DNA of 32,000 bases from Erysipelotrichaceae bacterium. Its GTDB lineage: Bacteria; Bacillota_I; Bacilli_A; Erysipelotrichales; Erysipelotrichaceae. A program made the translations under genes and the position numbers. Where the stretch lies: positions 270,001 to 302,000 of the forward strand of contig OY781039.1 of NCBI GenBank assembly GCA_963676105.1. The letters run 5' to 3'. The notes under the pieces are model-generated. The model was not told the DNA's origin, did not search any database, and worked only from the letters and a program-made list of their open reading frames with translations. Every line of letters starts with the position of its first letter. Within the stretch, counting starts at the first letter, position 1. Below are positions 2,479 to 28,727 of the stretch, one piece after another.

Positions 2479-2595
2479 ATATCAAAGTCTAGCACAGCTT
2501 AGGTTGAAAAATTGAAAAAGGAACAATTTTTCATGACAAATCTAATTTAAACAAGATACAATGAAACACAAGATATCATCGGTTGGAGGGAAATT

Positions 2596-3309: not shown

Positions 3310-3332
3310 CGTGTGTAAAACACGTTTTTTTA
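3308..3332 (+). terminator. Rho-independent terminator
   Basis: Stem AACGTGT (3308..3314) pairs with ACACGTT (3320..3326), followed by a T-run. Confidence 0.75.
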
Positions 3333-3349
3333 TAAGGTATAATATAAAC

Positions 3350-4726: not shown

Positions 4727-5436
4727 AAATAGAAGTTCTATACGCAAAAGTTTCTAATCTTTATGGTGATCAAGGTAATGTTTTGTTGCTTAAAAAAACT
4801 TTAATTGGTGCGACATTTTATGAAACAGACTTAAATGAAACTCCAAAGTTTGTAACATCAAAAATTAACTTAATCATTATGGGTTCAATGAGTGAAAAAA
4901 TGCAAATCAAGGTGATTAATCGTTTAATGCCCTTTAAAAATCGAATCATTGAAATGATTGATGCAGGTGTTCATTTTGTGATTACTGGGAACGCATTAGA
5001 TATTTTTGGGGAAGGGATTCAAAAAGAAGATGGATCTTTTGTCGAAGGTTTAAATATTTTTCCATTCAAAACAAAAGAAGATTTAATGCATCGACATAAT
5101 TCATTTGTTTTAGGGAGATATAAGAATATGGAAATTGTTGGTTTTAAAACACAATTTGCACAATTGTTTCCTAGCAGCAAATGTCCTCATTTCTTAGATA
5201 TCGAACGTGGTACGGGTTATCATGTTGGCTCAAAGGTCGAAGGTATTCAACGAAATCGTTTTTATGGGACCAACTGCATTGGACCATTACTGGTCTTAAA
5301 TCCATTTTTTACGCTAACTTTATTAAAAGAACTGGGCATTAATAATCCTCGTTTACCCTTTGAAAAATCTTTGATTGCAGCTTATCACAAACGAGTATCA
5401 GAACTTAGAGATCCTAAAATAATTAATTATCCTTAA
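4723..5436 (+). CDS. gatD: GatD-like (CobB/CobQ-type amidotransferase) partner of MurT, apparently lacking the Cys/His catalytic residues
   Basis: 237-aa ORF translationally coupled to murT. It is colinear with S. aureus GatD (SNLYGDQGN, IVGF, GTxxxGPLL). The nucleophile motif reads VITGNALDIFG and the His motif reads GTNCIGPLL. Confidence 0.7.
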   Translation: MKIEVLYAKVSNLYGDQGNVLLLKKTLIGATFYETDLNETPKFVTSKINLIIMGSMSEKMQIKVINRLMPFKNRIIEMIDAGVHFVITGNALDIFGEGIQKEDGSFVEGLNIFPFKTKEDLMHRHNSFVLGRYKNMEIVGFKTQFAQLFPSSKCPHFLDIERGTGYHVGSKVEGIQRNRFYGTNCIGPLLVLNPFFTLTLLKELGINNPRLPFEKSLIAAYHKRVSELRDPKIINYP

Positions 5437-5498
5437 GAGCGGCATTTGCTGCTTTTGTTAAGCAAAGTTGTATAATATTTTATATAGAAGAGGATATT

Positions 5499-6716
5499 AT
5501 GTATAACACACAAGAAATAAAAGAAAATGTATATTGGGTTGGTGGAAATGATAGACGTCTACATCGATTTGAAAATATGTTCCCACTACAATTTGGGATT
5601 GCTTATAATTCATATGTAATAGTGGATGAGAAATGCGCACTGATTGATACCGTAGATTCATCGATATCACAATTGTTTATTGATAATGTTGAACATGTAT
5701 TAAATGGTCGTGACTTAGATTACTTAGTCGTTAATCATATGGAACCTGATCACTGTGGTAATGTTGAAACTATTTTACGTCGCTATCCAAACTGTAAGTT
5801 TGTGGGGAATCAAAAGACCTTTCAATTTTTCTCACAGTTTTATGATTTTGATGCATCTTATGCCTATTATGAAGTTAAAGATTTAGATGAAATATCTTTA
5901 GGAAAACATCAATTAAGATTTTACTTTTCACAAATGGTTCATTGGCCAGAAGTGATGATGACTTTAGAAACAAGTGATCATATTTTATTTTCGGCAGATG
6001 CTTATGGAACTTTCGGTGCACACTATGGTTCAATCTTTGCAGATGAAGTTGATTATCGTCGTAATCACGTGGATGAAGCTCGACGTTATTATGCCAATAT
6101 TATTGGACGATTTGGTTTACCGGTTCAAACAATTATGCGTAAATTATCCAATGATGTGATAAAGATGGTTGCTTCAGTTCATGGACCAATCTATCGTGAG
6201 AGCACTGAACTGGCATTAATATTAGATAAATATGAGAAATGGTCACACAATATTCCAGAAGTGCATTCGGTATTAATGATTTATGGAACAATGTACAACA
6301 ACACGGAACTTGTGGTTGATACACTTGCGACTAAGCTGTCTCAAAATGGTGTGAAAGATATGCGTATTTATGATGTGAGTGAGTTTGATGTATCTTATTT
6401 AATTGCAGATGTTTGGAAATACTCACATATTGTCATTGCGACACCAACATACAACACAGGTGTCTTCCATTTAATTCATAACTTCCTGCATGAACTTGTT
6501 ACCCTTAATTTGAGTAATCGTAAGTTTAGTTTTATAATTAATCAATCTTGGGGTGGGACAGCATTAAGAGATCTTCAAGAACTTGTTTCAAAAATGAAAA
6601 ATATTGAGATTGTTGGTGAACCTTTACAAATTATTTCGACAGTTAAAAACGATAATTTAGAAGCGATTGAAAATCTTGCGAAAGAAATTTCTGATAGTGT
6701 TAAATCAATGACATAA
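5499..6716 (+). CDS. Flavodiiron protein (FprA-type: metallo-beta-lactamase-like domain plus flavodoxin domain)
   Basis: 405-aa ORF with di-iron ligand motif HMEPDHCG and a C-terminal flavodoxin-like half (LMIYGTMYNNTE). An SD is present. Confidence 0.8.
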   Translation: MYNTQEIKENVYWVGGNDRRLHRFENMFPLQFGIAYNSYVIVDEKCALIDTVDSSISQLFIDNVEHVLNGRDLDYLVVNHMEPDHCGNVETILRRYPNCKFVGNQKTFQFFSQFYDFDASYAYYEVKDLDEISLGKHQLRFYFSQMVHWPEVMMTLETSDHILFSADAYGTFGAHYGSIFADEVDYRRNHVDEARRYYANIIGRFGLPVQTIMRKLSNDVIKMVASVHGPIYRESTELALILDKYEKWSHNIPEVHSVLMIYGTMYNNTELVVDTLATKLSQNGVKDMRIYDVSEFDVSYLIADVWKYSHIVIATPTYNTGVFHLIHNFLHELVTLNLSNRKFSFIINQSWGGTALRDLQELVSKMKNIEIVGEPLQIISTVKNDNLEAIENLAKEISDSVKSMT

Positions 6717-6717
6717 G

Positions 6718-6741
6718 TCCTAGATAAATCTAGGATTTTTT
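6718..6741 (+). terminator. Rho-independent terminator
   Basis: Stem TCCTAGA (6718..6724) pairs with TCTAGGA (6729..6735), followed by a T-run. Confidence 0.75.
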
Positions 6742-6789
6742 ATGATTATTTGGACTTAAGAAAAAGATAAAATGATGTATAATAAACGC

Positions 6790-7479
6790 ATGGTTTATGT
6801 TAAACGAAGAAGACGAGTTCGCTGGATTCCATTGTCGCTGTTTATCTTAGCGATTTTAGCGGTTGCCTTCTTTTTATTACGCCCCTATATTTTTGCGAAT
6901 CAAGAACCAGAAATTGAGGTGATTGAAGGGGAAGTTGTGGATGTTGGTCCAGACTTAAATGGAAACGGAATTTCTGATATTGATGATATCGTCATTGGTG
7001 CTCGCAAAGACGCATTGGCATTACCTGCTTATGTTAACTGGTATTATGCAGGGGGTTATCCACCAGAGGATGAAGGAACCTGTACTGATCTAGTTTGGCG
7101 TGCATTCATGGAAGCTGGAATTGTCTTAAAAGACTTAGTTGATGCTGATATTGCGGCTAATACTTCAGCTTATCCATATGCCAGTGAACCAGATCCAAAC
7201 ATTGATTTTAGAAGAGTTAGAAATTTATATTACTTTTTTCAAAGAAATGGATTAGAATTAACAACGGATGTTTATGAAACTGATCAGTGGCAAGCTGGAG
7301 ATATAGTAATCTTTGGTAATCTTGAACACATTGGAATCGTTTCAGATATTCGAAACGAAAATGACATTCCATATCTTATCCATAATAATGATCAACCAAT
7401 CCGTGAGGAAGATCGATTAGAGTATGGATCATATACACAAGGCATTACTGGACACTTTAGATGGATACCAGAGGAATAA
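6790..7479 (+). CDS. DUF1287-like membrane-anchored protein
   Basis: Basic N-terminus plus a TM segment (MVYVKRRRRVRWIPLSLFILAIL...). GTCTDLVWRAF and GDIVIFG..HIGIV resemble DUF1287 proteins as I remember them. Start moved from 6772 to ATG 6790 because TATAAT (6778..6783) lies inside the longer ORF, 6 nt before 6790. Confidence 0.55.
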   Translation: MVYVKRRRRVRWIPLSLFILAILAVAFFLLRPYIFANQEPEIEVIEGEVVDVGPDLNGNGISDIDDIVIGARKDALALPAYVNWYYAGGYPPEDEGTCTDLVWRAFMEAGIVLKDLVDADIAANTSAYPYASEPDPNIDFRRVRNLYYFFQRNGLELTTDVYETDQWQAGDIVIFGNLEHIGIVSDIRNENDIPYLIHNNDQPIREEDRLEYGSYTQGITGHFRWIPEE

Positions 7480-11522: not shown

Positions 11523-11984
11523 ATGTTAGAAATTAATCAATTAGCACCAGATTTTACACTACCTAATCAAAATGGAGAACTTAGAACGTTAAGTGACTAT
11601 AAAGGAAAATGGGTCGTCCTCTATTTTTATCCAAAGGATAATACTCCAGGTTGTACCACTCAAGCCTGTTCATATCGAGATAATATGAATGAATTTGAGA
11701 AAAAGGGCATTAAAGTCTTTGGATTATCAAAAGATACAGCACAAAGTAAAAAGAAATTTGAAGTCAAATATGAACTCAATTTTGAATTATTGGCGGACGA
11801 AGATCATCATGTTTTAGAAGCTTATGATGTTTGGAAAGAAAAGAACATGTATGGCAAAAAAGTATGGGGAATAAAACGTACAACATTTGTCGTAAACCCA
11901 GAAGGACAAATTAGCGCAATCTTTGAAAAAGTAAAACCAGATGAAGATGTTGCGCAAGTCTTGGCTGCCATTGAAAATGCCTAG
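11523..11984 (+). CDS. bcp: Thioredoxin-dependent peroxiredoxin Bcp
   Basis: 153-aa ORF with YFYPKDNTPGCTTQAC (peroxidatic and resolving Cys). AAGGAGA SD is present. Confidence 0.9.
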   Translation: MLEINQLAPDFTLPNQNGELRTLSDYKGKWVVLYFYPKDNTPGCTTQACSYRDNMNEFEKKGIKVFGLSKDTAQSKKKFEVKYELNFELLADEDHHVLEAYDVWKEKNMYGKKVWGIKRTTFVVNPEGQISAIFEKVKPDEDVAQVLAAIENA

Positions 11985-17594: not shown

Positions 17595-18995
17595 ATGAAT
17601 TTTGCTAAACAACAATTAAATCAAAAACATCTGTTTATCGGCTTAATTGTTTTTAGTGTAAGTTATCTTCTTTTGCCAAATAATCTATTTACTTATGAAG
17701 CTAAGTTAGCTATGTCTAGCTTAGCTTTAATGATTTATTGGTGGATAACACGGCCTATTCATATTGCGGTAACAGCTTTATTGCCAATTGCCTTGAACAG
17801 TGTTTTTTCTTTTGCTAGCATGTCGAATATCCTTGCTAATTATTTTTCTCAAATTGTTGTGTTACTTCTTGGAGCAAATATATTAACGCTAGCTTGGAAG
17901 AAAACAGGTTTAGATAAACGAATAGCCTTAAAATCATTAAACTTAATTGGAACAAATGTTAAATATCAATTGATTGTATGGTTTATGTTATCAATTTTAT
18001 TATCAAGCGTATTACCCAATGCGGTTGTGGTAGCAGCATTGTCACCTATAGCATATTCAATGATGACATATCTAGATGAATCTTCAAGTAATCAATCGAT
18101 TCTTCATATGATATTGTTGATGATTGTTTGGGGCGCTGGTTTAGGTGGATTTGGTACACCGTTAGGTGGCGCAATGAATTTAGTTGCGATTACCCATATT
18201 GAAAATTATATTGGTAGAGAATTTATGTTTATTGATTGGGTTCTAACAATGGTCCCTTATATCTTTCTTTTGTCTGTAGGTTTCGTTTTATATATTCTAT
18301 TTCAAAAATATGAACAATCTAAGATAGAAGGAAGTCATGATTACTTCATTCAATCCTATAAAGCATTAGGGAAAATGAGTAAAGCTGAAGTTGTTTCGCT
18401 CGTCTTATTTACAATTCCTGTGATTTTGTCCTTTATACGACCTTTATATGCAAATTTATTGCCTGATTTTAAACCATTTTTTGCCTTTATGGTTTTCGCA
18501 TTATTTGCTTTTGTGATTAGTGATGATGAAAAAAATCTGATAATGACATGGGAGTATGCACAAAAGAATATCAACTGGGGACTAATGATTTTGTTTTCAG
18601 GTGGTTTGGCGATTGGTAATATTTTAATTGAAACAGGTGCCATTGAAAGTTTATCTACAATTATTCAGTTATTGAATTTAAAAAATATTAGTTTGATTAT
18701 TATAGTCATTTTGATTTTAGCTATGTTTTTAGCGAATGCGTCTAGCAATACGGCAGCGGTAGCTATTTCTGTACCTTTAGTGATAGGAATTATGAATTCT
18801 TTTGATCTAAATACATTGGGCTTTGTTTATATAGCAGTAGCCGCAAGTAATTGTGCTTTTTTATTTCCAACCTCAATTCGAGCTATTTCGATAGGTTTTG
18901 GAATTACACCTGATTATCTCTTTAAAAAGGGGGTAATTGGTGTGTTTATTAGTTTTATCATTTTGTTTACTTATGCTTTGTTTGTGATTAGTTAA
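17595..18995 (+). CDS. DASS/SLC13-family anion:cation symporter
   Basis: 466-aa polytopic ORF with WWITRPIHIAVTALLP and an SNT hairpin motif (ANASSNTAAVAI). It starts 6 nt after guaA. Confidence 0.65.
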   Translation: MNFAKQQLNQKHLFIGLIVFSVSYLLLPNNLFTYEAKLAMSSLALMIYWWITRPIHIAVTALLPIALNSVFSFASMSNILANYFSQIVVLLLGANILTLAWKKTGLDKRIALKSLNLIGTNVKYQLIVWFMLSILLSSVLPNAVVVAALSPIAYSMMTYLDESSSNQSILHMILLMIVWGAGLGGFGTPLGGAMNLVAITHIENYIGREFMFIDWVLTMVPYIFLLSVGFVLYILFQKYEQSKIEGSHDYFIQSYKALGKMSKAEVVSLVLFTIPVILSFIRPLYANLLPDFKPFFAFMVFALFAFVISDDEKNLIMTWEYAQKNINWGLMILFSGGLAIGNILIETGAIESLSTIIQLLNLKNISLIIIVILILAMFLANASSNTAAVAISVPLVIGIMNSFDLNTLGFVYIAVAASNCAFLFPTSIRAISIGFGITPDYLFKKGVIGVFISFIILFTYALFVIS

Positions 18996-19045
18996 TAAAT
19001 TTGTGTGTTAATAGCGTTTACTTTGTGAAAAATAGATTTAAAATT

Positions 19046-19073
19046 ACGTATTCTATCATAAATACGTTTTTTT
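19046..19073 (+). terminator. Rho-independent terminator (AT-rich stem)
   Basis: Stem ACGTATT (19046..19052) pairs with AATACGT (19061..19067), followed by a T-run. Confidence 0.55.
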
Positions 19074-19094
19074 ATAACAAATGTCAAAATTGCT

Positions 19095-19151
19095 TTGACA
19101 GGATTTTCACAATATGTTTAAATTAATGTATTAATTGTTAAAAGATTAACA
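19095..19151 (+). promoter_or_regulatory. Candidate promoter plus two abutting palindromes upstream of the sulfur/selenium operon
   Basis: TTGACA (19095..19100), a 17-nt spacer, then TTAAAT (19118..19123) preceded by TGt. Palindromes are AATTAAT-gt-ATTAATT (19121..19136) and TGTTAA-aaga-TTAACA (19136..19151). Confidence 0.4.
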
Positions 19152-19186
19152 TATTTGAACAAGTTATATTATAAGGGGAGTTCAGA

Positions 19187-19909
19187 ATGAGTGAAACAAC
19201 AACAAGAAGATCATCAAGAGCAGGCGGTCGAGCTCGTAAGAAAAAAATGAATCAAATTCCTATCGCATTAGGGGTTTTTCTTTTGATTACAGTCATCGCT
19301 ATTTATCTCACATTAAGAAATGAAACATTAGGGCTATTTTGGTTAATAGGTATTGCTTTTGGCTTTATCCTCCAAAGAGCTCGTTTTTGCTTTACCGCTT
19401 CAATGCGTGATCCATATTTAACAGGATCAACGACTGTAACACGTGCTGTGTTAATTGCGTTTGCGGTTAGTTCAATTGGTATTACAGCGATTAAATACGG
19501 ATACCTAATGAATGGTTTAACTGTTCCAGGATCAAGTTATATTGTGCCTATCTCTATTGCGACAGGTGTTGGTGCGTTTATGTTTGGTGTGGGTATGGTT
19601 ATAGCCGGTGGATGTGCATCAGGAACACTAATGCGAATTGGTGAAGGGTTCTGGATGCAATTACTATCATTATTTTTCTTTGTAGTCGGCTCACTATGGG
19701 GCGCACATGATTTTGGATGGTGGTATAGAAACTTCATGGTAAGTGGTAAACGTGTCTTCTTACCTGATTACTTTACGAATTTATTTAATTCAACTGCTTT
19801 TGGTTGGTTTGTTGGATTGCTTACAAATTTATTAATTATCTTAGGATTATATATTGCAGCTCACAAATGGGAAAATCGCAAAAAAGATCCAGATATGGAA
19901 AGTCATTAA
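19187..19909 (+). CDS. YedE/YeeE-family (Sulf_transp) membrane protein corresponding to the C-terminal half of E. coli YedE
   Basis: 240-aa ORF with LQRARFCFTASMRD and AGGCASGTLMRIGEG, and a basic N-terminal tail. GGGGAG SD is present. Confidence 0.8.
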   Translation: MSETTTRRSSRAGGRARKKKMNQIPIALGVFLLITVIAIYLTLRNETLGLFWLIGIAFGFILQRARFCFTASMRDPYLTGSTTVTRAVLIAFAVSSIGITAIKYGYLMNGLTVPGSSYIVPISIATGVGAFMFGVGMVIAGGCASGTLMRIGEGFWMQLLSLFFFVVGSLWGAHDFGWWYRNFMVSGKRVFLPDYFTNLFNSTAFGWFVGLLTNLLIILGLYIAAHKWENRKKDPDMESH

Positions 19910-19947
19910 ACATTTTTAAATAAGATACATAATGGAGGAACTTAAAA

Positions 19948-20175
19948 ATGGCTAAAGAAGTAGTATTAGATTGTCTAGGTGAGGCTTGTCCTGTACCGCT
20001 CGTAAAAGCAGAAAAAGCATTAGAAAAATTAGCATCTGGGGATGTGCTTATTGTGCAAATTGACCACAGTTGTGCGATGAAAAATGTACCTGAATGGGCA
20101 CGTAAACAAGGTCATGAAGTTGAACTTGAGGAAGTTGATGATGGCGAATGGGAATGCATCATCGAAAAGAAATAA
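19948..20175 (+). CDS. TusA/YedF/YeeD-family sulfur-carrier protein, copy 1
   Basis: 75-aa ORF with the CPxP motif (GEACPVPLV). GGAGGA SD lies 8 nt upstream. Confidence 0.85.
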   Translation: MAKEVVLDCLGEACPVPLVKAEKALEKLASGDVLIVQIDHSCAMKNVPEWARKQGHEVELEEVDDGEWECIIEKK

Positions 20176-20199
20176 TTTAGTTATCGGAGGAAATATAAA

Positions 20200-20427
20200 A
20201 TGGCTAAAGAAGTAGTATTAGATTGTCTAGGTGAGGCTTGTCCTGTACCGCTCGTAAAAGCAGAAAAAGCATTAGAAAAATTGGCATCTGGCGATGTACT
20301 TATCGTTCAAATTGATCATAGCTGCGCAATGAAAAATGTGCCTGAATGGGCACGTAAACAAGGTCACGAAGTTGAACTTGAAGAAGTTGATGATGGCGAA
20401 TGGGAATGCATTATTGAAAAGAAATAA
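20200..20427 (+). CDS. TusA/YedF/YeeD-family sulfur-carrier protein, copy 2 (protein identical to copy 1)
   Basis: 75-aa ORF with the same amino-acid sequence as copy 1 and 15 synonymous nucleotide differences. GGAGGA SD lies 8 nt upstream. Confidence 0.85.
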   Translation: MAKEVVLDCLGEACPVPLVKAEKALEKLASGDVLIVQIDHSCAMKNVPEWARKQGHEVELEEVDDGEWECIIEKK

Positions 20428-20454
20428 ACGTATACATTAAGTGGAGGAAATTTT

Positions 20455-21003
20455 ATGAAGAAGTTTTTTGACAACATTAAAAAGAATGAATTCTACCTAA
20501 TGTGGTTTAAAAATGCTTGGCCATATGTGACAGGTGGTGTCTTATTAGCACTATTTCAAATCGTTACATTTGCGACAACTGGTAACCCTTGGGGTGTATC
20601 TGGTGTCTTCGCTAACTGGGGAGCATGGTTATTTGAAGCTGTTGGTGGATCTGTTGATGAATGGTATTACTTTTCATCTCCAGGTGCTCAAGCTACTTTA
20701 ACAAACGGATTTTTAGATGACGCAGGTACATGGCGAAACTTAGGTATTATCTTTGGTGCTTTGTTCTCAACGTTAATCGCATCTGGATTTAAATTCAAAA
20801 AAATCAAATCTGTTCGTCAAGTTGTTGCGGCAGTCTTAGGTGGTTTATTAATGGGTTATGGTGCACGTATTGCTTATGGATGTAACATTGGTGCGCTATT
20901 CTCAGGGATTGCATCTCTATCATTATCTGGTTGGGTATTTGCAATCTTTATGTTTGCAGGCGCAGTTGTTGGTAGCAAACTATTAGTTAAGTATTTTATG
21001 TAA
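20455..21003 (+). CDS. YedE/YeeE-family (Sulf_transp) membrane protein corresponding to the N-terminal half of E. coli YedE
   Basis: 182-aa ORF with TGNPWGVSGVFANWG and GYGARIAYGCNIGALFSG..SLSGW. GGAGGA SD is present. Confidence 0.8.
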   Translation: MKKFFDNIKKNEFYLMWFKNAWPYVTGGVLLALFQIVTFATTGNPWGVSGVFANWGAWLFEAVGGSVDEWYYFSSPGAQATLTNGFLDDAGTWRNLGIIFGALFSTLIASGFKFKKIKSVRQVVAAVLGGLLMGYGARIAYGCNIGALFSGIASLSLSGWVFAIFMFAGAVVGSKLLVKYFM

Positions 21004-21013
21004 AGGAAAAATT

Positions 21014-22231
21014 ATGGCTAGAGAAAAAAAAGTAGAACAATATGATGTAGTTGTAGTAGGTGGTGGGGCTTCAGGTCTTACAGCCGGTATCTATTGTGGA
21101 CGCGCTAAACTAAAAACTTTAATTGTTGAACAAGCATTAGTTGGTGGCATCGCAACAAATACAAACGAAATTGAAAATTATCCTGGTTTCCCAGATGGTA
21201 TTTCAGGAATAGATCTTATGAATCTATTTAAAGATCAAGCAAAGAAATTTGGTTGTGACTTTAAATTAACAAACATTAAAACAGTCGATTTCTCATCAGA
21301 TGTAAAAATTTTAGAAACATTTAGAAATCGTTATGAAGCAAAAGCCGTTATTATTGCGAACGGTTCAAAACCTAGAGTACTAGGGATTGAATCAGAAGAA
21401 CAATATATTGGCAAAGGGATTGCGTTCTGTGCAACATGTGATGCAGCAGCAAATACTGGCAAAACAGTCGTCGTTGTTGGATCAGGAGATGCTGCTATTG
21501 AGGAAGGTATATTCCTAACTAAATTTGCTGATAAAGTTATTGTTTCAGTTTTACATGATGAAGGCATTATGGATTGTAATGAAATTGCGAAAGCAGCAGC
21601 TTTGGCAAATCCTAAAATGGAATTTAAATGGAATACAGTTGTTAATGAATATGTCGGTGGCGAAGAGCTAGATGGTGTTGTTCTTAAAAACGTTAAAACT
21701 GGCGATTTAGAAAGAGTTGATTGTGCAACTTGCTTCTTATTTATAGGTTATGTTCCTAATACAGCAATTTACGAAGGTGTCATAGATATGACAAGTCGTG
21801 GTTATATTCTAACTGACGAAGTAATGCGCACAAGTGCTCCTGGTGTATTTGCAGCAGGTGATGTTCGTGATAAATTCTTACGTCAAGTTGCGACATGTGT
21901 AGGTGATGCAGCCACAGCTGGTGTTATGGCTGAAAAATACATTGCTGAAAGTGAAATCTTTGAAGAACAAATCATGGTCGGTAATGGTGTTGCTTATGTG
22001 TTTGAAGCAATTGATGCAGATCAAAGAAACTTTTTATCTACTATTGAAAGCTTAGAAGAAAGTCATTCAGGTGTTGCATTCCATAAAGTGGATACTTATA
22101 AATCAAAAGGTTTAGCTGTACGTTTAGGTGTTAGTGAAATGCCTGCCGCAGTCATTATTAAAGAAGGCAAAATTTCTGAAACAATTTTAAAAGATAAATT
22201 AACTAAAGAAGCAATCGAAGAAGCACTTTAG
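21014..22231 (+). CDS. Thioredoxin-reductase-like FAD flavoprotein (CATC) fused to a Cys-less thioredoxin-fold domain
   Basis: 405-aa ORF with VVVGGGASGLTAG, CATCD, GSGDAAIEE and GVFAAGDV. The C-terminal ~95 aa show a Trx-like pattern (VAYVFEA...KVD...LGVSEMPAAVIIKEGK) with no cysteine. Confidence 0.8.
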   Translation: MAREKKVEQYDVVVVGGGASGLTAGIYCGRAKLKTLIVEQALVGGIATNTNEIENYPGFPDGISGIDLMNLFKDQAKKFGCDFKLTNIKTVDFSSDVKILETFRNRYEAKAVIIANGSKPRVLGIESEEQYIGKGIAFCATCDAAANTGKTVVVVGSGDAAIEEGIFLTKFADKVIVSVLHDEGIMDCNEIAKAAALANPKMEFKWNTVVNEYVGGEELDGVVLKNVKTGDLERVDCATCFLFIGYVPNTAIYEGVIDMTSRGYILTDEVMRTSAPGVFAAGDVRDKFLRQVATCVGDAATAGVMAEKYIAESEIFEEQIMVGNGVAYVFEAIDADQRNFLSTIESLEESHSGVAFHKVDTYKSKGLAVRLGVSEMPAAVIIKEGKISETILKDKLTKEAIEEAL

Positions 22232-22245
22232 GGAGGAGTACATTT

Positions 22246-23139
22246 ATGAAAAAAAGATTACTCATTATTCTAAGCGCTTTAATATTGTCGTCATTATCAG
22301 CATGTGCAAATTATGATTTTGGTGAAACTGGTCAATATATTGTTACTGCTGATGAAGTTGAATCACTTGTTGCTGATGGGGCTATTGTTGTAGATGCTCG
22401 TTCTGCTGAAGATTATTTAGTGGATCATTTAGCTGGTGCAATTAATATTCCTATGGGAGCACTTGTAGTAAATGAACCATATGCGAATATGCTGCCTGAA
22501 GCAGATCAAATTGAAATGGTTATGGGTGCAGCAGGTGTTAGTGAAAATGACACATTGCTTATTTATGACAACTCAAACAATATGTTAGCGGCACGTGTTC
22601 AATGGACACTAAATATGTATTCAAACTTTAATGTCAAAGTGATTAGTGGTGGTTATCAAGCACTTATTAATGAAGGGCTTGAAATGAATACGACAAACAC
22701 CACTTTACCTGAAACTGTTTATACTGCAGGTGAATATCAAAAGACACTAATTACTTCATTAGCTTATATCAATTCAACATTGAATATTCCTGATGAAAAT
22801 ATTGTCATTATTGATACAAGAAGTGCTGAAGAATACAATGCTGGAACAATTCCAGGTGTATTGCATAAAGAATATGTATGGACGATGTATGCAAACGGTG
22901 TTTATAAAACGGTTGATGACTTACAAAGTACCTATTTAGATGAAGGCTTAATGCCTGATACAAGAATCATTCTATTCTGCAAAACATCGGTTAGAGCAGC
23001 TCAAGTTTATACAGCTCTTAAAGATGCAGGATACACTGATGTACGGATATATGATGGAGCATGGTTAGAATACTCTGAACTTGGAGAAGTCTGGGTTCCA
23101 TCTTCAAATATCACACCAACGAAGCAAGACGCTTCATAG
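22246..23139 (+). CDS. Tandem-rhodanese (thiosulfate/3-mercaptopyruvate sulfurtransferase-like) lipoprotein
   Basis: Signal peptide with lipobox LSAC. The N-domain is inactive (IYDNSNN) and the C-domain has the active loop FCKTSVRAAQ. GGGAGGAG SD is present. Confidence 0.8.
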   Translation: MKKRLLIILSALILSSLSACANYDFGETGQYIVTADEVESLVADGAIVVDARSAEDYLVDHLAGAINIPMGALVVNEPYANMLPEADQIEMVMGAAGVSENDTLLIYDNSNNMLAARVQWTLNMYSNFNVKVISGGYQALINEGLEMNTTNTTLPETVYTAGEYQKTLITSLAYINSTLNIPDENIVIIDTRSAEEYNAGTIPGVLHKEYVWTMYANGVYKTVDDLQSTYLDEGLMPDTRIILFCKTSVRAAQVYTALKDAGYTDVRIYDGAWLEYSELGEVWVPSSNITPTKQDAS

Positions 23140-23149
23140 AGAGGGAAAA

Positions 23150-24031
23150 ATGAAAAAATTATTAGGTTTACTCGTAGCTACAATGATGGTATTCTCACTT
23201 ACTGCATGTAGCTCAGACACAGCTGCAGATGATACAACAGCTGGTGATGAAGTTACAGTGAATGCAGTAGAAGCTGCTGCAACTGCTTACTTTGCAGAAT
23301 TTGATGGCAACAATATCGTTGCTTGGGCAGATGTATTTGCGATGATCGATGCAGGGGATGCTCCTTATATCTTAAGTATCCGTTCAGCGGATGATTATGC
23401 TGCAGGTCATATCGAAGGTGCAGTTAATGCTGCTTGGGGTGCTGACTTAGCATCTAAAGTTGCTATGTTACCAACAGATCAACCGGTTTATGTTTACTGT
23501 TACTCAGGACAAACTGCTGGTCAAACAGTTGCATTATTAAATATGATGGGTGTTGAAGCATATTCAATTAAATCTGGATTTGTTAATGGCGCGATGACTA
23601 CTGAAGGTTACGAAGCATATGTTTCAACTGATGCTGTTGAAATGAGTGATGCTGGAGCTTCATTTGATGCAGATGTATTAGCTTTTGTTCAAGATTACTT
23701 CAATGCTATTCCTGAAGGTGGAAGTAATATCGTTGCTGCGACTGATGCTCAACCATTAATCGAAGCTGGTGACAAAGTTGTTATGGATATCAGATCAGCT
23801 GATGATTATGCTGCTGGTCATATCGAAGGTGCTATTAATGTTCCTTACGGTGCAGGTATGCAAGAAAACTTTGCTCAATTTGAAGGACAATCAATCGTTG
23901 TTACTTGTTACTCAGGACAAACAGCTGGTCAAACAGTTGCTATCCTACGTGCGCTTGGTTACGATGCTGTATCACTTAAGAGTGGTATGGGTGGTTGGAC
24001 TGGATCTGAACTACCTGTTGTTACTGAATAA
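23150..24031 (+). CDS. Lipoprotein with two catalytically competent rhodanese domains
   Basis: Start set at MKKLLGLLVATMMVFSLTAC (lipobox LTAC, SD GAGAGGGA) rather than the track start 23081. CYSGQTAGQT occurs in both domains. Confidence 0.8.
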   Translation: MKKLLGLLVATMMVFSLTACSSDTAADDTTAGDEVTVNAVEAAATAYFAEFDGNNIVAWADVFAMIDAGDAPYILSIRSADDYAAGHIEGAVNAAWGADLASKVAMLPTDQPVYVYCYSGQTAGQTVALLNMMGVEAYSIKSGFVNGAMTTEGYEAYVSTDAVEMSDAGASFDADVLAFVQDYFNAIPEGGSNIVAATDAQPLIEAGDKVVMDIRSADDYAAGHIEGAINVPYGAGMQENFAQFEGQSIVVTCYSGQTAGQTVAILRALGYDAVSLKSGMGGWTGSELPVVTE

Positions 24032-24060
24032 AATACAAATTATTTTATAGGAACTACATT

Positions 24061-24095
24061 AAATCCACGGCTTGATACCGTGGATTTATTTTGTT
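24061..24095 (+). terminator. Rho-independent terminator
   Basis: 10-bp stem AAATCCACGG (24061..24070) pairs with CCGTGGATTT (24078..24087), followed by a T-rich tail. Confidence 0.85.
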
Positions 24096-24143: not shown

Positions 24144-25670
24144 ATGAGAGAAAAAATAAAGAACTATAAAACAATATTAATCTTACTTAGCTTATATTTT
24201 TTATTGAGTATAAGTTTCTTAGATACTTTTCCTTTTATGCACTCTGATGAATCTTGGTTGTCTGGTTTAACAAGAGTGATGATACATACAGGTTTAAATT
24301 CAACTGAGACTTTCTTTGATTTAGTTCCTCGTTTTCCACATGCAATAAAATCATTATTTCATTTGATGCAAATGTTGTTTATTACAATGTTTTCTTATGA
24401 TTTATTCTCAGTTCGACTATTGTCGCTTGTATTTGCGATTGCATTTTTATTTGTTTTTTATAAGCTTTTGACGGATGTATTAAACAATAAAGTGTATGCA
24501 GTTGTATCAACTTTTATAATTGCCTTTGATATTCAATTTATTTATGCATCACATTTTGCTCGACAAGAGATTATTATCGGTTTTGGAATGATTCTAAGTC
24601 TTTATTATCTACAACACTTTATTAATAATTGGTCAATCAAGAATGATCTAATTCTAGGCTTAACGATAGGTGTGTTTATTGGTGTGCATCCCAATGCTTT
24701 TTTAATTGCTGTTGTTATGGGGAGTTTGTATCTATATTATCTGTTTGTTGAACAAAAACTTAAATTTAAGAACTTACTATTATTAGTTTTAACGGTCTTA
24801 ATTTTAGCCTTAATTTTTGTAGGAATTAGTTATCACTTTGATTCTCAATTTATAAACCATTATTTAAATTATGGTGATGATTTGGGGGTAAAACTAAGTT
24901 TAATTGAGAAAATAAAAAATATTATTCCTTTTTATCAAAAACTCTATTTAGGAATATCGGCAACCTACTTTACGCCTTGGATTCAATTTCAATTACTCTT
25001 ATTTGCTTTTTCTATTATTATTTCAATCAATTATGCGTATAAAGATAAGAAAATATTGAAATTTACTTTACCAATCGTATTTTTAAATCTTGGCTATATT
25101 TTTATTGGACGTTATTCTCAACCATCAATCTTGTTTATGTTTATATTATCTTATGAACTTGTATTCTATTTAATTTCAAAATTGAAGAAATTCGTTTTGA
25201 TTTTATTATCGATTTTATGTTTATCAACTTTGGGTTCTTCAATATTACAAATAAGTCATAAAATGAATAATGAGTATTCAAACTATATCCAAGAAATACA
25301 AACAATTATTCCGAGTGATGCTAATGTATTGGCTAATTTAAATACTGAGTTTGCTTTTGATTACAATCATTTATTTGATGTTCGTAATTTGGATTATTTA
25401 AGTGTAAATAATCTAAGCTTTGAGGACTATATTTTAAAGAATAATATCGAATATATTGTTTATGCTGAAGAAATGGATTTTATTTATCAAAGCCGTCCAG
25501 TTTGGAATATTGTTTATGGGAATCTTTATCCTTATTATGAAGATATGCAAGAATTTATAAGTAATGATTGCGATTTTGTTTATGAATTTTCATCATCTTA
25601 TGCAATGCGAATAGTTGAGTATACTGACGATAAAGAATGGCTTGTTAAAATATATAGGGTAGTGAAATGA
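24144..25670 (+). CDS. Polytopic GT-C-fold glycosyltransferase (GT39/GT83, ArnT/PMT-like) with a C-terminal extracytoplasmic domain
   Basis: 508-aa ORF with many TM segments. There is an acidic motif HSDESW after TM1 and a ~130-aa soluble C-terminus. The assignment rests on architecture and operon context, not on a search. Confidence 0.5.
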   Translation: MREKIKNYKTILILLSLYFLLSISFLDTFPFMHSDESWLSGLTRVMIHTGLNSTETFFDLVPRFPHAIKSLFHLMQMLFITMFSYDLFSVRLLSLVFAIAFLFVFYKLLTDVLNNKVYAVVSTFIIAFDIQFIYASHFARQEIIIGFGMILSLYYLQHFINNWSIKNDLILGLTIGVFIGVHPNAFLIAVVMGSLYLYYLFVEQKLKFKNLLLLVLTVLILALIFVGISYHFDSQFINHYLNYGDDLGVKLSLIEKIKNIIPFYQKLYLGISATYFTPWIQFQLLLFAFSIIISINYAYKDKKILKFTLPIVFLNLGYIFIGRYSQPSILFMFILSYELVFYLISKLKKFVLILLSILCLSTLGSSILQISHKMNNEYSNYIQEIQTIIPSDANVLANLNTEFAFDYNHLFDVRNLDYLSVNNLSFEDYILKNNIEYIVYAEEMDFIYQSRPVWNIVYGNLYPYYEDMQEFISNDCDFVYEFSSSYAMRIVEYTDDKEWLVKIYRVVK

Positions 25671-26752
25671 TGATAAAGTTTAAAGAAAGTAATTATATCA
25701 AAGAAGATTTAAATATTCTGGAGAATGCTTTGCTGAATGATATGGACTATATCAGCACAGTAAAAGAGAAATTATCTACGGATTATGGGGAACATATCTT
25801 TTTATGCGCTAATGCATCGCTTGCTCTAGATATGCTTTTTTTAGCCTATGATTTTAAAAAAGGATCAGAAGTTATTATTCCTTCTTATACTTACCCTTCT
25901 GCTTTAAATACCATCTTACGCTTTGGTTGTGTACCTGTCTTATGTGATATCGATGAAACAACTTGTGTTATAGATGTTGAACATGCAAAAGCTTTGAAAA
26001 CTGATAAAACGGTTTGCATTATCCCCACTCATTATGGTGGAGTATCCTGTGATATGGATCAGTTAAAAGAAGAGTTTAGCGATATTAAAATTATTGAAGA
26101 TGCAGCTTTGTCTTTTGGCGCAAGCTATAAAGGAAAAGCTTTAGGTTCTTTAGCAGATGCATCCGTATTATCTTTTCACAGAACGAAGAACATCTCATGC
26201 GAAGAGGGTGGAGCGATTGTTTTGAATGATGTTTCAATCATAGACAAAGTACATTTAATTTTTGACAATGGTACAAATCGTGAGGCTTTTATAAAGCATG
26301 AAGTAAAATCGTATTCATGGCAAAAAATTGGATTTAACGCAAAAATGAATAATTTATCTGCAGCTTTACTCAGTACTCAATTAGATAAACTCGAAACAAT
26401 AACGCATAAACAAAGGTCTTTGTTTGATACGTATTATAAAGCATTAAAACCAATTGAGTCTAAAGGCTTTAAATGTCCAACTATTCCTGTTTATAATCAA
26501 AATAATTATCATATCTTTTATCTAGTATTTAAGAACGAAGAATTAAAAAATAAAGTACAAGATCATCTAAATGCACAAGGGATAGAAGCAGTCATTCATT
26601 ATGTTCCTCTTCATCAAAATCTAGATGTTCAATCTTTAGATTATCCAAATACTAATCATGTTGCGAATTGCTTATTACGACTACCTATGCATACAAAAAT
26701 GAGTAAAGAGGATTGTTTGTTTATCGTACAAGAAATTGAGTTGTGTTTATGA
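25667..26752 (+). CDS. DegT/DnrJ/EryC1-family sugar aminotransferase, WecE-like (dTDP-4-amino-4,6-dideoxyhexose type)
   Basis: SFHRTKNISCEEGGAIVLND (PLP Lys), DNGTNRE, NYHIFYL and IHYVPLH parallel E. coli WecE as I recall it. ATGA overlap with the upstream gene. Confidence 0.85.
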   Translation: MMIKFKESNYIKEDLNILENALLNDMDYISTVKEKLSTDYGEHIFLCANASLALDMLFLAYDFKKGSEVIIPSYTYPSALNTILRFGCVPVLCDIDETTCVIDVEHAKALKTDKTVCIIPTHYGGVSCDMDQLKEEFSDIKIIEDAALSFGASYKGKALGSLADASVLSFHRTKNISCEEGGAIVLNDVSIIDKVHLIFDNGTNREAFIKHEVKSYSWQKIGFNAKMNNLSAALLSTQLDKLETITHKQRSLFDTYYKALKPIESKGFKCPTIPVYNQNNYHIFYLVFKNEELKNKVQDHLNAQGIEAVIHYVPLHQNLDVQSLDYPNTNHVANCLLRLPMHTKMSKEDCLFIVQEIELCL

Positions 26753-27459
26753 TTCAAGAGACGATATCGGTTGTCGTTCCAGTGTACAATGCTTCCAAAA
26801 CACTAGAAAAAATCATTGATAAACTTGTTGATGTTCTAAGTAGGTTTAAGGATTATGAAATTATTTTAGTGGATGATTGTAGTATAGATAATAGTTTTCA
26901 ATGTTTAAAAAAATTGAAAAAACAATACTCAAAACTGAAAGTATTGAAACTTAAAGAGAATAGTGGCCAACAGTGCGCAATTTTGTGTGGTTTATCTTAT
27001 TCAACAAAAGATGTCATCTGTATTATTGATGATGATCTGGATCAAAATCCAAGCGATATTTTAAGACTTTATGAGAGCTTAAGTCAGGGATTTGATGTAG
27101 TGTATGGAATAACGGATTATAAAACTGTTAAAAGTTTTGGATCTATAATGAGAGATCTATTATTTAATACCATCACAAACATTCCTAAAGGAATAAAAGT
27201 TTCGGCGTTTCGAATCATGAAAAATGAGATTAAAGAAAAAATTATTCAAGCTGATACTTCTTTTGTTTATATTTCGATGGAAATCCTAAAATATACCCAA
27301 AATATTGGGAATATTAGAGTAGAAACAAATAAAGTAAGTGAAAGTAACTATACTTTCACTAAGCTTTTAAATTTATATAAAAATATTATATTTACTTATG
27401 CATTGCATTTAAATCGTAGTAGCGGTAAATCTTGTTATGAAGTGGAGAATATTATATGA
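26749..27459 (+). CDS. GT2 glycosyltransferase of the polyprenyl-phosphate (ArnC/DPM1/GtrB) type, without C-terminal TM helices
   Basis: VVVPVYNAS, VDDCSIDNS and DDDLDQNPSDI (compare DADLQ(N/H)PP). ATG 26749 gives an ATGA overlap with the upstream stop. The track start 26743 is a GTG. Confidence 0.75.
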   Translation: MIQETISVVVPVYNASKTLEKIIDKLVDVLSRFKDYEIILVDDCSIDNSFQCLKKLKKQYSKLKVLKLKENSGQQCAILCGLSYSTKDVICIIDDDLDQNPSDILRLYESLSQGFDVVYGITDYKTVKSFGSIMRDLLFNTITNIPKGIKVSAFRIMKNEIKEKIIQADTSFVYISMEILKYTQNIGNIRVETNKVSESNYTFTKLLNLYKNIIFTYALHLNRSSGKSCYEVENII

Positions 27460-28727
27460 AGATTATGGTTTTAGGCGGTGGAAACTGCCAAATAAATTTA
27501 ATAAAAAGATTAAAAGATAAAGGCGATGAAATTATCCTAATTGATTATCTGTCTAATTGTTTAGGTAAATCAGTCTGCAATAAACATTATCAAATATCAA
27601 CGTTTGATACGCCAAAAGTTTTAGAAATTGCAAAAACCGAAAAGATCGATGCTATTGTAACTTTAGGAACTGATCAACCGATTTATACGGCGGCTGTCGT
27701 CGCAAAAGAATGCGGTTTACCATTTTACTTAAATCCTGAAGAAGCTTTATCAGTGACCAATAAAAGAGTGATGAAAAAGATGTTTAAAGAGTATTCGATT
27801 CCATCAGCAAATTATGTCCTAATTTCAGAAAGTTTCAAGGACGAAGAAGTAAACAAATTAAAGTTTCCTTGTGTTTTAAAGCCAGTTGATTCACAAGGTC
27901 AAAGAGGAATATATAAACTCAATTCAATCGCTGAAATTCGAGCGGTTATTAAAGATACTTTGAGTTATTCACGTGAAGATAAAGTCTTACTTGAAGAATA
28001 CTATGATAGCGACGAAATAACTGTTAATGGTTGGATAACAAATGGTAAACTAACACTTTTATCAGTGGTGGATCGAGTAACACTACAGGAAAATCAACAT
28101 ATTGGAATTTGTATAGCCCATAATTTTCCATCTCAACATTTGAAGCGTTATTATCAAGATATTGAGAATTTAACTCAAAAAGTTATTCAGAGTTTTAATC
28201 TAACAAATGGACCTGTCTATTTTCAATATTTGATTGGGGAAAAGGGACTTCAAATTAATGAAATTGCGATGCGGATTGGTGGAGCTTATGAAGATATAAC
28301 CTTACCACTTATTACTGGGATAGATGTCTTGGATGTCTTAATTCAATCTATAAAAGGTAATAAAATAGATGCCTCAAAGTTTGATGCTTACCAGCTTAGT
28401 CAAAATCAAGTCTATCTTTCAACGCAAATGTTCTTTTTAAATAAAGGCTGTATCACAAACATTTTTTATGATCAAGATTCATTAAGTAAAGCACGCATCA
28501 GTCATTTAAATATTGCACGTCATATTGGTGATCAAATTAGGGACATCCAAAATGCGACAGCTAGAGCAGGTTACTTTTTAGTACAGGCGAACACAGTTTC
28601 TGAACTTAAGTTAAATATTCAAAGAGCTTATCAGAATGTAAAAATAATGGATGATAAAAAAAGTAATTTAATAAAAAATTACTTTGATTATCAAGATCGT
28701 TATAAATATGCTCCAACCGATTTATAA
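27456..28727 (+). CDS. ATP-grasp carboxylate-amine ligase
   Basis: 423-aa ORF with MVLGGG, VLKPVDSQGQRGI, LLEEYY and NEIAMRIGGA. ATGA overlap with the GT2 gene. Confidence 0.75.
   Translation: MKIMVLGGGNCQINLIKRLKDKGDEIILIDYLSNCLGKSVCNKHYQISTFDTPKVLEIAKTEKIDAIVTLGTDQPIYTAAVVAKECGLPFYLNPEEALSVTNKRVMKKMFKEYSIPSANYVLISESFKDEEVNKLKFPCVLKPVDSQGQRGIYKLNSIAEIRAVIKDTLSYSREDKVLLEEYYDSDEITVNGWITNGKLTLLSVVDRVTLQENQHIGICIAHNFPSQHLKRYYQDIENLTQKVIQSFNLTNGPVYFQYLIGEKGLQINEIAMRIGGAYEDITLPLITGIDVLDVLIQSIKGNKIDASKFDAYQLSQNQVYLSTQMFFLNKGCITNIFYDQDSLSKARISHLNIARHIGDQIRDIQNATARAGYFLVQANTVSELKLNIQRAYQNVKIMDDKKSNLIKNYFDYQDRYKYAPTDL

Follow-up and report, generated by a model that had tools for sequence, protein, structure and literature searches.

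A run of seven genes encoded on the + strand at positions 19187-24031 of a 32,000-nucleotide stretch of Erysipelotrichaceae bacterium DNA (contig OY781039.1, positions 270,001 to 302,000; hereafter the window) brings together a split YeeE-type channel, two TusA carriers, a thioredoxin reductase (TrxR)-like flavoprotein, and two rhodanese lipoproteins. On sequence grounds, these genes are a genuine operon, their arrangement lying far beyond chance, and their channel-TusA-reductase core is widely conserved in anaerobes. All functional statements made here are drawn from sequence, predicted structure, and gene context. Taken together, they point to the uptake and reduction of thiosulfate and/or polysulfide (sulfane) sulfur to sulfide, likely with an assimilatory role, a proposal to which roughly an even chance is given.

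Operon layout and conservation of its core

The seven reading frames, g1 (19187-19909, 240 aa), g2 (19948-20175, 75 aa), g3 (20200-20427, 75 aa), g4 (20455-21003, 182 aa), g5 (21014-22231, 405 aa), g6 (22246-23139, 297 aa), and g7 (23150-24031, 293 aa), were all found on the + strand where an initial annotation of this DNA had placed them, separated, in order, by 38, 24, 27, 10, 14, and 10 nt. Good Shine-Dalgarno (SD) sequences precede six of the seven, while g5 shows a weak one consisting only of AAAGGA, in agreement with the short gaps and with the SD in front of every gene but the reductase that the annotation had described. For g7, the start considered is the ATG located 3' of its SD, its longest reading frame opening at TTG 23081. 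Profile searches returned the families previously assigned to these products (Sulf_transp, TusA, Pyr_redox_2, a weak Thioredoxin match, and Rhodanese), and all the motifs quoted for them (RFCF, GGCASG, GCNIG, CPVP, CATC, LSAC/CKTSVR, LTAC, and CYSGQTA twice) are present.

The unit is bracketed by a weak upstream and a strong downstream terminator. The intrinsic terminator at its 3' side (24060-24088, + strand) consists of an 11-bp stem and a T-run, with a folding energy of -15.6 kcal/mol (z -5.3). On the contrary, the upstream terminator-like hairpin with its U7 tract (19046-19073, + strand), which ends the upstream gene, folds with only -6.9 kcal/mol (z -4.0), and was missed by the terminator consensus scan because it contains just two G-C pairs. 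Of the two flanking terminators initially proposed, the downstream one is therefore firm and the upstream one weak, despite its U7. Between them, a single terminator-like site was predicted on the + strand, a stem of just 5 bp, the minimal size, that falls within g7 (23353-23365).

Conservation was evaluated in 80 species-representative loci from Clostridia and Spirochaetes, picked via a pattern scan for the reductase, so that linkage is seen from the reductase side only; reading frames in these loci were called in this work, and their starts are imprecise. The channel genes are named relative to StYeeE, the structurally solved YeeE of Spirochaeta thermophila, YeeN being the N-half (g1 type) and YeeC the C-half (g4 type). 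YeeC lies immediately 5' of the reductase gene in 80/80 loci, and the order YeeN-TusA(1-3)-YeeC-reductase is kept in 75/80, that is, in all those with enough upstream sequence, the other five being located on short or cut-off contigs that open at YeeC or close to it. Synteny among relatives, whose absence would have led the initial annotation to abandon its proposal, is thus extensive. The reductase family (~405 aa) is 58-81% identical to the window protein, and TusA displays the highest identity of all components (68-94%). Carriers belong to Christensenellales, Oscillospiraceae, Lachnospiraceae, Anaerovoracaceae, Syntrophomonadaceae, Spirochaetes, and Peptostreptococcales-type genera (Fusibacter, Acidaminobacter, Wukongibacter, and Sinanaerobacter), and also include Dethiosulfatibacter. 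The contrary explanation, that the seven genes are unrelated units lying side by side, can appeal to some relatives in which the rhodanese pair sits in a separate transcription unit, but it is hardly conceivable given the 10-38 nt gaps, the presence of no more than the minimal stem inside g7 between the flanking terminators, and a core order kept in 75/80 genomes from two phyla.

Channel, carrier, and reductase

Both channel proteins match Pfam Sulf_transp (PF04143, cut-off 27 bits), g1 with 104.8 bits over profile positions 1-156 and g4 with 120.3 bits over positions 164-310. When compared with StYeeE (PDB 6leo), g1 aligns to residues 7-129, spanning C22 and C91, and g4 to residues 214-319, spanning C293. 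The equivalents of these residues are Cys68 (RFCF, in a QRxRxCF motif, for C22) and Cys143 (GGCASG, for C91) in g1, and Cys142 (GGCNIG, for C293) in g4, all three cysteines being functionally important in StYeeE (PMC11073785). The gene order, g1 and then g4, is that of the halves in YeeE, although the channel is not a single polypeptide of about 330-350 aa, as in YeeE/TsuA, but is split into 240 and 182 aa. The initial annotation had described g1 as C-half-like and g4 as N-half-like, which holds with regard to the YedE/FdhT model (NF033796), where g1 matches positions 183-383 and g4 positions 2-159, but not with regard to Pfam, the TsuA models, and StYeeE, for which g1 is the N-half. We infer that g1 and g4 form a heterodimeric YeeE-type channel that would pass the substrate.

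Curated models place both halves below their thresholds. The YedE/FdhT model gives 100.5 and 101 bits for the two halves (cut-off 350), the TsuA model NF052577 gives 70.4 bits for g1 and 57.1 for g4 (cut-off 400), a second TsuA model, NF041049, gives 60.4 and 29.8 bits (cut-off 645), and the TIGR04112 model for the YedE selenium transporter reaches only 21.8 bits (cut-off 200).

At its N-terminus (residues 1-25, window 19187-19260), g1 also carries a strongly basic tail, RRSSRAGGRARKKK, the relatives showing RxPRKPKKSQIP; TusA being markedly acidic, this tail might dock it. The presence of selenocysteine in the channel was suspected as several YeeN reading frames looked truncated, but was ruled out by the in-frame sequence upstream of them, which showed no TGA at cysteine positions across nine inspected YeeN genes; these proteins just have no canonical start codon.

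The two carriers, g2 and g3, each match Pfam TusA (PF01206) with 88.1 bits (cut-off 28.6) and are identical at the protein level, since each of the 15 nucleotide differences between their genes is a synonymous change at the third position of a codon. The first 83 nt do not differ between the copies. Their cysteines are Cys9, Cys14 (in CPVP), and Cys42 (in DHSC); among 89 aligned homologues, Cys14 and Cys42 occur in all and Cys9 in 98%. As for the channel, the cut-offs of the equivalog models, here those for TsuB/YeeD and YedF, are not reached (NF041048, 52 versus 147.5 bits; TIGR03527, 46.8 versus 110 bits; NF008242, 44.3 versus 79 bits). Tandem tusA genes, in two or three copies set apart solely or mainly by synonymous changes, were also found in 10 other lineages; loci L022, L023, L029, L030, L037, L041, L055, L061, and L072 are among those with the tandem. 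Judged by these substitutions, tusA amplification recurred repeatedly and both copies are under purifying selection. Repeated tandem copies of a constant protein would be explained if TusA were a carrier consumed once per sulfur atom, and the amplification fits selection for the dosage of such a stoichiometric carrier.

The product of g5 is a homologue of low-Mr TrxR, with the FAD and NAD(P)H Rossmann domains of that fold, as indicated by its matches to Pyr_redox_2 (148.5 bits) and to the D. radiodurans TrxR (PDB 2q7v, 289 bits), as well as by the Foldseek comparison with TrxR (E 2.9e-38, TM 0.81 on the target), despite scoring below the cut-off of the TrxR equivalog model TIGR01292 (311.5 versus 343.45 bits). 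The CATC redox pair is invariant across 118 homologues, in all of which the motif that binds the 2'-phosphate of NADPH, HRRD (HRRxxxR), is replaced by an invariant HDEGxMDCNE (H-D/E-E-G-x-M-D-C-N-E). In g5, this segment occupies residues 181-190 (window 21554-21583) and contains an invariant Cys188. Since the arginines for the NADPH phosphate are replaced by Asp-Glu, a preference for NADH or for a different donor is suggested, NADH being probably the pyridine nucleotide used.

The C-terminal region of g5 shows a weak match to Pfam Thioredoxin (PF00085) at residues 342-403 (21.5 bits, below the cut-off of 23.5), and this family is also among the precomputed Pfam matches of many g5 homologues. 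In the AlphaFold model (overall pLDDT 86.6), residues 325-404 adopt a beta-alpha-beta-alpha-beta-beta-alpha thioredoxin (Trx) fold with pLDDT values of about 89-95. No cysteine is found in g5 after residue 320, and no sampled homologue has a CxxC at the canonical Trx position, N-A-x-x-x-x-Q-R replacing WCGPC. The description of the reductase as atypical in the initial annotation is upheld; speculatively, its Cys-less Trx domain might be a docking or regulatory module. NTRC-type TrxR-Trx fusions (e.g., PDB 7p9d) similarly combine a low-Mr TrxR with a C-terminal Trx fold, but differ from the g5 family in that its sampled members have no CxxC in the Trx domain and have lost the NADPH motif.

A search with the degenerate Trx domain against 1.84 billion cluster representatives yielded 41 matches, mostly fragments, a figure that is no useful census as the whole g5 family probably collapses at 50% identity clustering. 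Matches included P0246 (1864 aa, with nine repeats of a similar domain), P0271 (1094 aa), and several proteins of 85-92 aa, maybe stand-alone versions or fragments. A housekeeping TrxR was also considered as the identity of g5, and rejected on its invariant linkage to the channel, its altered NADPH motif, and its extra domain. A stand-alone AhpC/TSA peroxiredoxin gene lies ~7 kb upstream of the operon (11523-11984), with no link to g5 seen.

Rhodaneses, proposed pathway, and competing functions

Pfam Rhodanese (PF00581) identifies two domains in g6 and two in g7. The former is a TST/MST-type tandem rhodanese with a lipobox LSAC and the active loop CKTSVRA in its second domain, while the latter contains two GlpE/PspE-like domains, each with the loop CYSGQTA, and a lipobox LTAC. 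The N-termini of both are basic and are followed by a hydrophobic stretch and the lipobox (pattern match), and lipobox-like or signal-peptide N-termini together with six-residue active loops recur in their homologues. Both proteins thus look like exported lipoproteins, as the initial annotation had assumed. Homologues of g7 carry two or four rhodanese domains: four are found in its closest relatives (526-562 aa) but, again, two in those further away, so that domain number varies.

Rhodanese genes occur in 29/80 loci; they had been taken as part of the system, which is so in the window, but they are not a constant part of it. In three groups, namely Christensenellales-type loci, metagenome-assembled genomes (MAGs) labelled as Syntrophomonadaceae, and two MAGs labelled as Spirochaetes, they lie directly 3' of the reductase gene and share its strand, while in other loci they form a separate unit. 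Exported rhodaneses involved in sulfur supply include PspE and YnjE of E. coli and Sud of Wolinella, which are soluble periplasmic proteins of Gram-negative bacteria without a linked YeeE or reductase. They share with g6 and g7 extracytoplasmic sulfurtransferase domains tied to sulfur supply, from which g6 and g7 differ in being predicted lipoproteins with a linked channel and reductase.

A parallel module, divergent from a gene for a GT-C membrane glycosyltransferase, was identified in three relatives, at 1316-6980 of locus L086, 2758-8256 of L087, and 4187-9642 of L088. Its co-directional genes encode, in the direction of transcription, one or two rhodanese lipoproteins, one or two full-length Sulf_transp proteins (422-436 aa), and a 565-aa fusion of CoA-disulfide reductase (CoADR) and rhodanese (RHD), a TauA-like ATP-binding cassette (ABC) transporter being found next to it in L087 and L088. 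Members of the CoADR-rhodanese family such as CoAPR and Npsr convert persulfide into thiol and H2S (PMC9405070). A design of rhodanese, channel, and flavoprotein-carrier would therefore occur twice with unrelated flavoproteins, this being the strongest contextual argument for g5 reducing carrier-bound sulfur. It also gives independent support to the route from outside rhodanese to channel, carrier, and flavoprotein outlined in the initial annotation. Compared with the persulfide reductases of this family (E. faecalis CoAPR and Shewanella Npsr; PMC9405070), g5 would likewise be a flavoprotein disulfide reductase that is linked, covalently or by gene neighbourhood, to a sulfur carrier and turns persulfide into thiol and H2S. 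However, it is a two-cysteine CATC TrxR homologue, whereas a CoADR has one cysteine; a free-standing TusA is presumed to be its partner, and its fused domain is a Cys-less Trx fold instead of a rhodanese.

The presence of a CoADR-RHD module in related islands, together with component classes like those of the CstR-controlled rhodanese/CoA-persulfide-reductase operon of E. faecalis (PMC9405070), could also be read as a sign of reactive sulfur handling, in which TusA and g5 would clear cytoplasmic persulfides while the channel exports or equilibrates sulfur species. Such a role is very improbable, since g6 and g7 look like exported lipoproteins and not cytoplasmic rhodaneses, the regulator in relatives is of LysR type, neither a CstR/CsoR or SqrR type regulator nor a persulfide dioxygenase or SQR was seen among recurrent neighbours, and the characterised YeeE proteins are importers (PMC11073785).

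In the proposed assimilatory pathway, the rhodanese lipoproteins would bind or pre-process the substrate at the outer face of the membrane, or might supply the channel with sulfane sulfur removed from thiosulfate or polysulfide. The g1-g4 channel, with the fold and cysteines described above, would then pass the substrate inward, and the CPxP cysteine of TusA would capture the sulfur at the cytoplasmic mouth, by analogy with the action of YeeD on YeeE. Finally, the CATC dithiol of g5 and pyridine nucleotide would restore TusA and set sulfide free, along with sulfite in the case of thiosulfate as substrate, the target being either a TusA persulfide or thiosulfonate, or the Cys14-Cys42 disulfide left once sulfide departs. 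The sulfide would most likely serve assimilation under sulfur limitation. In relatives, the island that contains the locus is under LysR control and also encodes ABC transporters of sulfonate and taurine type. The carriers are strict anaerobes of guts, digesters, and sediments, where the system would route thiosulfate or polysulfide to sulfide, a route of relevance to how sulfur is acquired, and H2S formed, in such environments.

The last step has a counterpart in the YeeE/YeeD system, where thiosulfonate, perthiosulfonate, and persulfide adducts of YeeD have been described and sulfide is freed only with a reductant, the in-cell acceptor being stated as unknown (PMC11073785). That work leaves open both the cellular sulfur acceptor and the in vivo reductant, for which g5, always beside channel and carrier in the 80 loci, is a concrete candidate and could be the missing partner. 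Thiosulfate upregulates yeeE/dsrE/tusA of T. maritima 42.6-fold, together with an NAD(P)H flavoprotein of the cytoplasm that acts as thiosulfate/polysulfide reductase (PMC9431562).

Several observations weigh against the assimilatory pathway as proposed. No protein reaches the curated equivalog cut-offs of TsuA, TsuB, YedE, YedF, or TrxR, the channel halves score higher on the selenium-linked YedE/FdhT model (~100 bits) than on TsuA (70 and 57 bits), and the LysR regulators of the relatives are closest to a selenium-metabolism LysR model. In addition, no gene for a sulfite reductase or a cysteine synthase lies in the vicinity, 51/80 loci have no rhodaneses, those present are usually beside a glycosyltransferase and may not feed the channel, and the pathway assigns no part to the Cys-less Trx domain of g5. 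Moreover, StYeeE carries intact thiosulfate via hydrogen bonding and not through a covalent relay (PMC11073785), a covalent relay through the channel being unsupported by any data.

The same structural observation bears on a DsbD-like relay of electrons from inside to outside, in which NAD(P)H would reduce g5, TusA, and the channel cysteines in turn, keeping the rhodaneses or a surface thiol reduced. Conserved cysteines that follow one another without a break from g5 up to the outer side of the membrane, and exported rhodaneses without an obvious extracytoplasmic reductant, would suit such a relay. Nonetheless, it is considered extremely unlikely, as the cysteines of the solved YeeE form no redox pairs, thiosulfate being carried by hydrogen bonding (PMC11073785), and the core occurs without rhodaneses in most loci.

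More weight is to be given to selenium as the element handled, the rhodaneses then forming perselenides, the split channel and TusA importing selenium, and g5 reducing it to selenide for SelD. YedE/FdhT is the best NCBIfam match of both channel halves, and in all 11 LysR proteins tested the top match was the NCBIfam selenium-metabolism LysR (NF040786), with 156-203 bits, under its cut-off of 250, yet ~50-80 bits above the next family. One related rhodanese also weakly matches the selenite/tellurite ExtH model. A split YedE is also known from archaea (PMC5322559), and selenium depletion induces YedE together with a TusA system in M. maripaludis (PMC11097638). The operon thus resembles YedE-YedF/FdhT-FdhU and the split archaeal YedE (PMC5322559, PMC11097638) in its best-scoring curated model, its split channel, its TusA-like partner, and the LysR family nearest to the regulators of its relatives. 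It differs from them in scoring ~100 bits against a cut-off of 350, in its reversed half order, in not reaching the YedF cut-offs, and in having no selenium gene nearby.

All selenium-linked scores remain under curated cut-offs, with only 21.8 bits for TIGR04112, and none of nine inspected YeeN genes contains an in-frame TGA. A search of 88 loci (1.28 Mb, ~8-10 kb around the system) and of the window with an approximate E. coli SelD query detected no SelD-like gene, the sole weak match, in L033, being an AIR-synthase-family protein below the HypE, ThiL, and SelD cut-offs. Taurine- and sulfonate-type transporters in the island also speak against selenium, and amplification of tusA dosage is hard to square with a trace element. 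Selenium is consequently regarded as decidedly unlikely, while sulfur is, overall, quite probably the substrate element.

Fusibacter and Dethiosulfatibacter, both among the carriers, are thiosulfate or sulfur reducers. In such fermenting anaerobes, the imported thiosulfate or polysulfide might instead be reduced to H2S in a dissimilatory manner, as a non-respiratory electron sink re-oxidising NADH. Both the predicted NADH preference and the tusA amplification would suit a high flux, and the induction of yeeE in T. maritima together with its cytoplasmic NAD(P)H reductase provides a precedent (PMC9431562). Against it, the LysR gene and the sulfonate/taurine-type importers of the island are typical of nutrient scavenging, and no sulfite-reducing enzyme is linked. 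Other carriers include taxa that, to our knowledge, are not described as sulfur reducers. An electron sink is therefore rather unlikely, although not to be disregarded, and within the sulfur readings assimilation is favoured.

The initial annotation considered the characterised relatives of the operon to be just two-gene modules, which overlooks the YTD cluster, the T. maritima yeeE/dsrE/tusA genes with NSR (PMC9431562), and SoxT1A (PMC11582611). With the YeeE(TsuA)-YeeD(TsuB) systems of E. coli and Spirochaeta thermophila (PDB 6LEO, 8J4C; PMC11073785), the operon shares a Sulf_transp channel with the three cysteines essential there, an adjoining CPxP carrier of the TusA family with a second conserved cysteine, as in EcYeeD, and, by analogy, the coupling of uptake to capture on the carrier. 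It differs from them in that the channel is split around tusA, the TsuA/TsuB cut-offs are not reached, and tusA is amplified. Its additions are a TrxR-like reductase dedicated to it and, for the lineage of the window, rhodaneses that are exported. Separate genes for the YeeE N- and C-halves, with a proposed heterodimer, are also known for PmpA/PmpB (PMC11582611), but these proteins have ~130 aa and one cysteine each, in contrast to the 240 and 182 aa, three cysteines, and other gene context found here.

The YTD cluster of sulfur disproportionators (YedE-like, TusA, and DsrE-like proteins) and the T. maritima genes are similarly multi-gene YeeE and TusA modules, tied to thiosulfate/S0 metabolism, the sulfur taken up by T. 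maritima being reduced by an NAD(P)H flavoprotein of its cytoplasm (PMC9431562). The operon, on the contrary, has no DsrE-like protein, and its reductase is a low-Mr TrxR homologue, not a CoADR/NSR, encoded in the same operon. According to the model proposed for SoxT1A of Hyphomicrobium denitrificans (PMC11582611), a thiol protein outside the cytoplasm donates sulfane sulfur to a YeeE-like importer, from which it reaches sulfur-transfer proteins in the cytoplasm; however, SoxT1A serves sulfur oxidation, has a periplasmic DsbA-like partner, is a full-length transporter, and comes with no reductase.

The building blocks, namely YeeE channel, TusA, TrxR scaffold, and rhodaneses, are thus known, and the operon is not a new category. 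The combination of a channel split around tusA, a linked TrxR-like reductase with a degenerate Trx domain, exported rhodaneses, and a GT-C/aminosugar association appears new, no description of this gene set having been found in literature searches on YeeE/YedE, TusA, TrxR, rhodanese, and lipoprotein.

Wider island and control elements

Downstream of the operon, the window contains, all on the + strand, genes for a GT-C (PMT_2/ArnT-like) membrane glycosyltransferase (24144-25670; weak Pfam PMT_2 and PMT matches), a DegT-type sugar aminotransferase (25667-26752), a GT2 glycosyltransferase of ArnC/PgfS type (26743-27459), and an ATP-grasp ligase of L-amino-acid-ligase type (27456-28727). Homologues of the first are labelled as ArnT or GT39 family in their sources, and one of them is a GT-C-DegT fusion. 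The start and stop codons of the DegT, GT2, and ATP-grasp genes overlap, and by their content and recurrence they are an aminosugar pathway that travels with the island. Near the core, ATP-grasp genes were found in ~50/80 loci, GT2 in ~35/80, and DegT in ~33/80, often joined in relatives by an SsuA-like ABC transporter and RmlB, and this aminosugar set accompanies the sulfur genes across several orders.

GT-C genes are present in 35/80 loci. Among the 29 loci with rhodaneses, 20 have a GT-C gene no further than 3.6 kb from them, mostly at less than 300 nt and in varying orientation. In five of the other nine, the rhodanese block is within about 240 nt of a contig end, while the remaining four have no GT-C in view (L029, L046, L069, and, less clearly, L060). 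The GT-C gene also adjoins the rhodaneses in L085-L088. The fullest views of the island are those of Wukongibacter sp. M2B1 (L085), Sporosalibacterium faouarense (L087), and Clostridium sp. DL1XJH146 (L088), in which ~15-19 genes begin with two rhodanese genes, GT-C, and an ABC transporter (ATPase, permease, and substrate-binding protein), and continue with ATP-grasp, GT2, DegT, RmlA (not in L088), RmlB, an additional tusA (TusA2), LysR, and YeeN-TusA-YeeC-reductase. The seven genes, initially read as a complete path, hence stand as an operon, but one that is part of this larger conserved island.

The rhodanese lipoproteins may be glycosylated by the GT-C/aminosugar set, or its product may be a glycoconjugate of the cell surface, and the association could reveal a new role of surface glycosylation in sulfur or selenium handling. 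A broader picture can be drawn of a widespread, horizontally shared chalcogen capture island of anaerobic Bacillota and Spirochaetes, in which an NADH-dependent, TusA-specific g5 would be the reductant missing so far from group translocation of YeeE/YeeD type, and tusA dosage would set the flux. This picture is tentative, and so is the idea, taken jointly with it, that the rhodanese lipoproteins cooperate with, or are substrates of, the GT-C and N-acyl-aminosugar pathway, whose product would be a surface glycoconjugate required for the capture of external sulfane sulfur or selenium.

Regarding control elements, no LysR or TusA2 gene is found anywhere in the window. A divergent LysR gene is nonetheless present in 68/80 relatives, and an additional tusA beside it in 65/80, so that the lack of a regulator in cis claimed by the initial annotation is accurate for the window but not a trait of the system, being a lineage-specific loss. 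In Christensenellales-type relatives, the DASS-family symporter gene is followed by the extra tusA and the LysR gene, and in the closest relatives ~1.1 kb with both genes fills the gap between DASS gene and g1 (window 18996-19186 versus 5119-6429 of L005). The relatives also show a LysR-type box, CTTATACTGCATAAG, that fits the T-N11-A pattern and was not found in the window. By this comparison, the window lineage has lost ~1.1 kb comprising the second tusA, the divergent LysR gene, and the CTTATACTGCATAAG box, while keeping the promoter.

This promoter is a sigma-70-like element (19095-19124, + strand; TTGACA, 18-nt spacer, TAAATT) that matches 10 of 12 consensus positions, with a comparable TTGACA element 5' of YeeN in L005, as judged by eye. 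Between it and the ribosome-binding site lies a palindrome, GTTAAAAGATTAAC (19137-19150, + strand), of the form GTTAA-N4-TTAAC, which looks like the operator of some regulator. It is the single match of this form in the 32-kb window. Related loci (1.17 Mb) contain 14 such elements, of which 13 are upstream of YeeN and 12, in close relatives, within ~45 nt of its start. The Rfam scan at gathering threshold detected no riboswitch or other RNA family in the whole window, and an S-box or T-box would not fit, since the operon leader is only ~60 nt.

Directly 5' of the operon, and ending 191 nt before the start of g1, the DASS-family anion symporter gene (17595-18995, + strand) matches Pfam CitMHS and Na_sulph_symp and scores 153.9 bits on the NCBIfam DASS model, below its cut-off of 198.6. 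The same symporter gene lies upstream of the operon in 12 loci.

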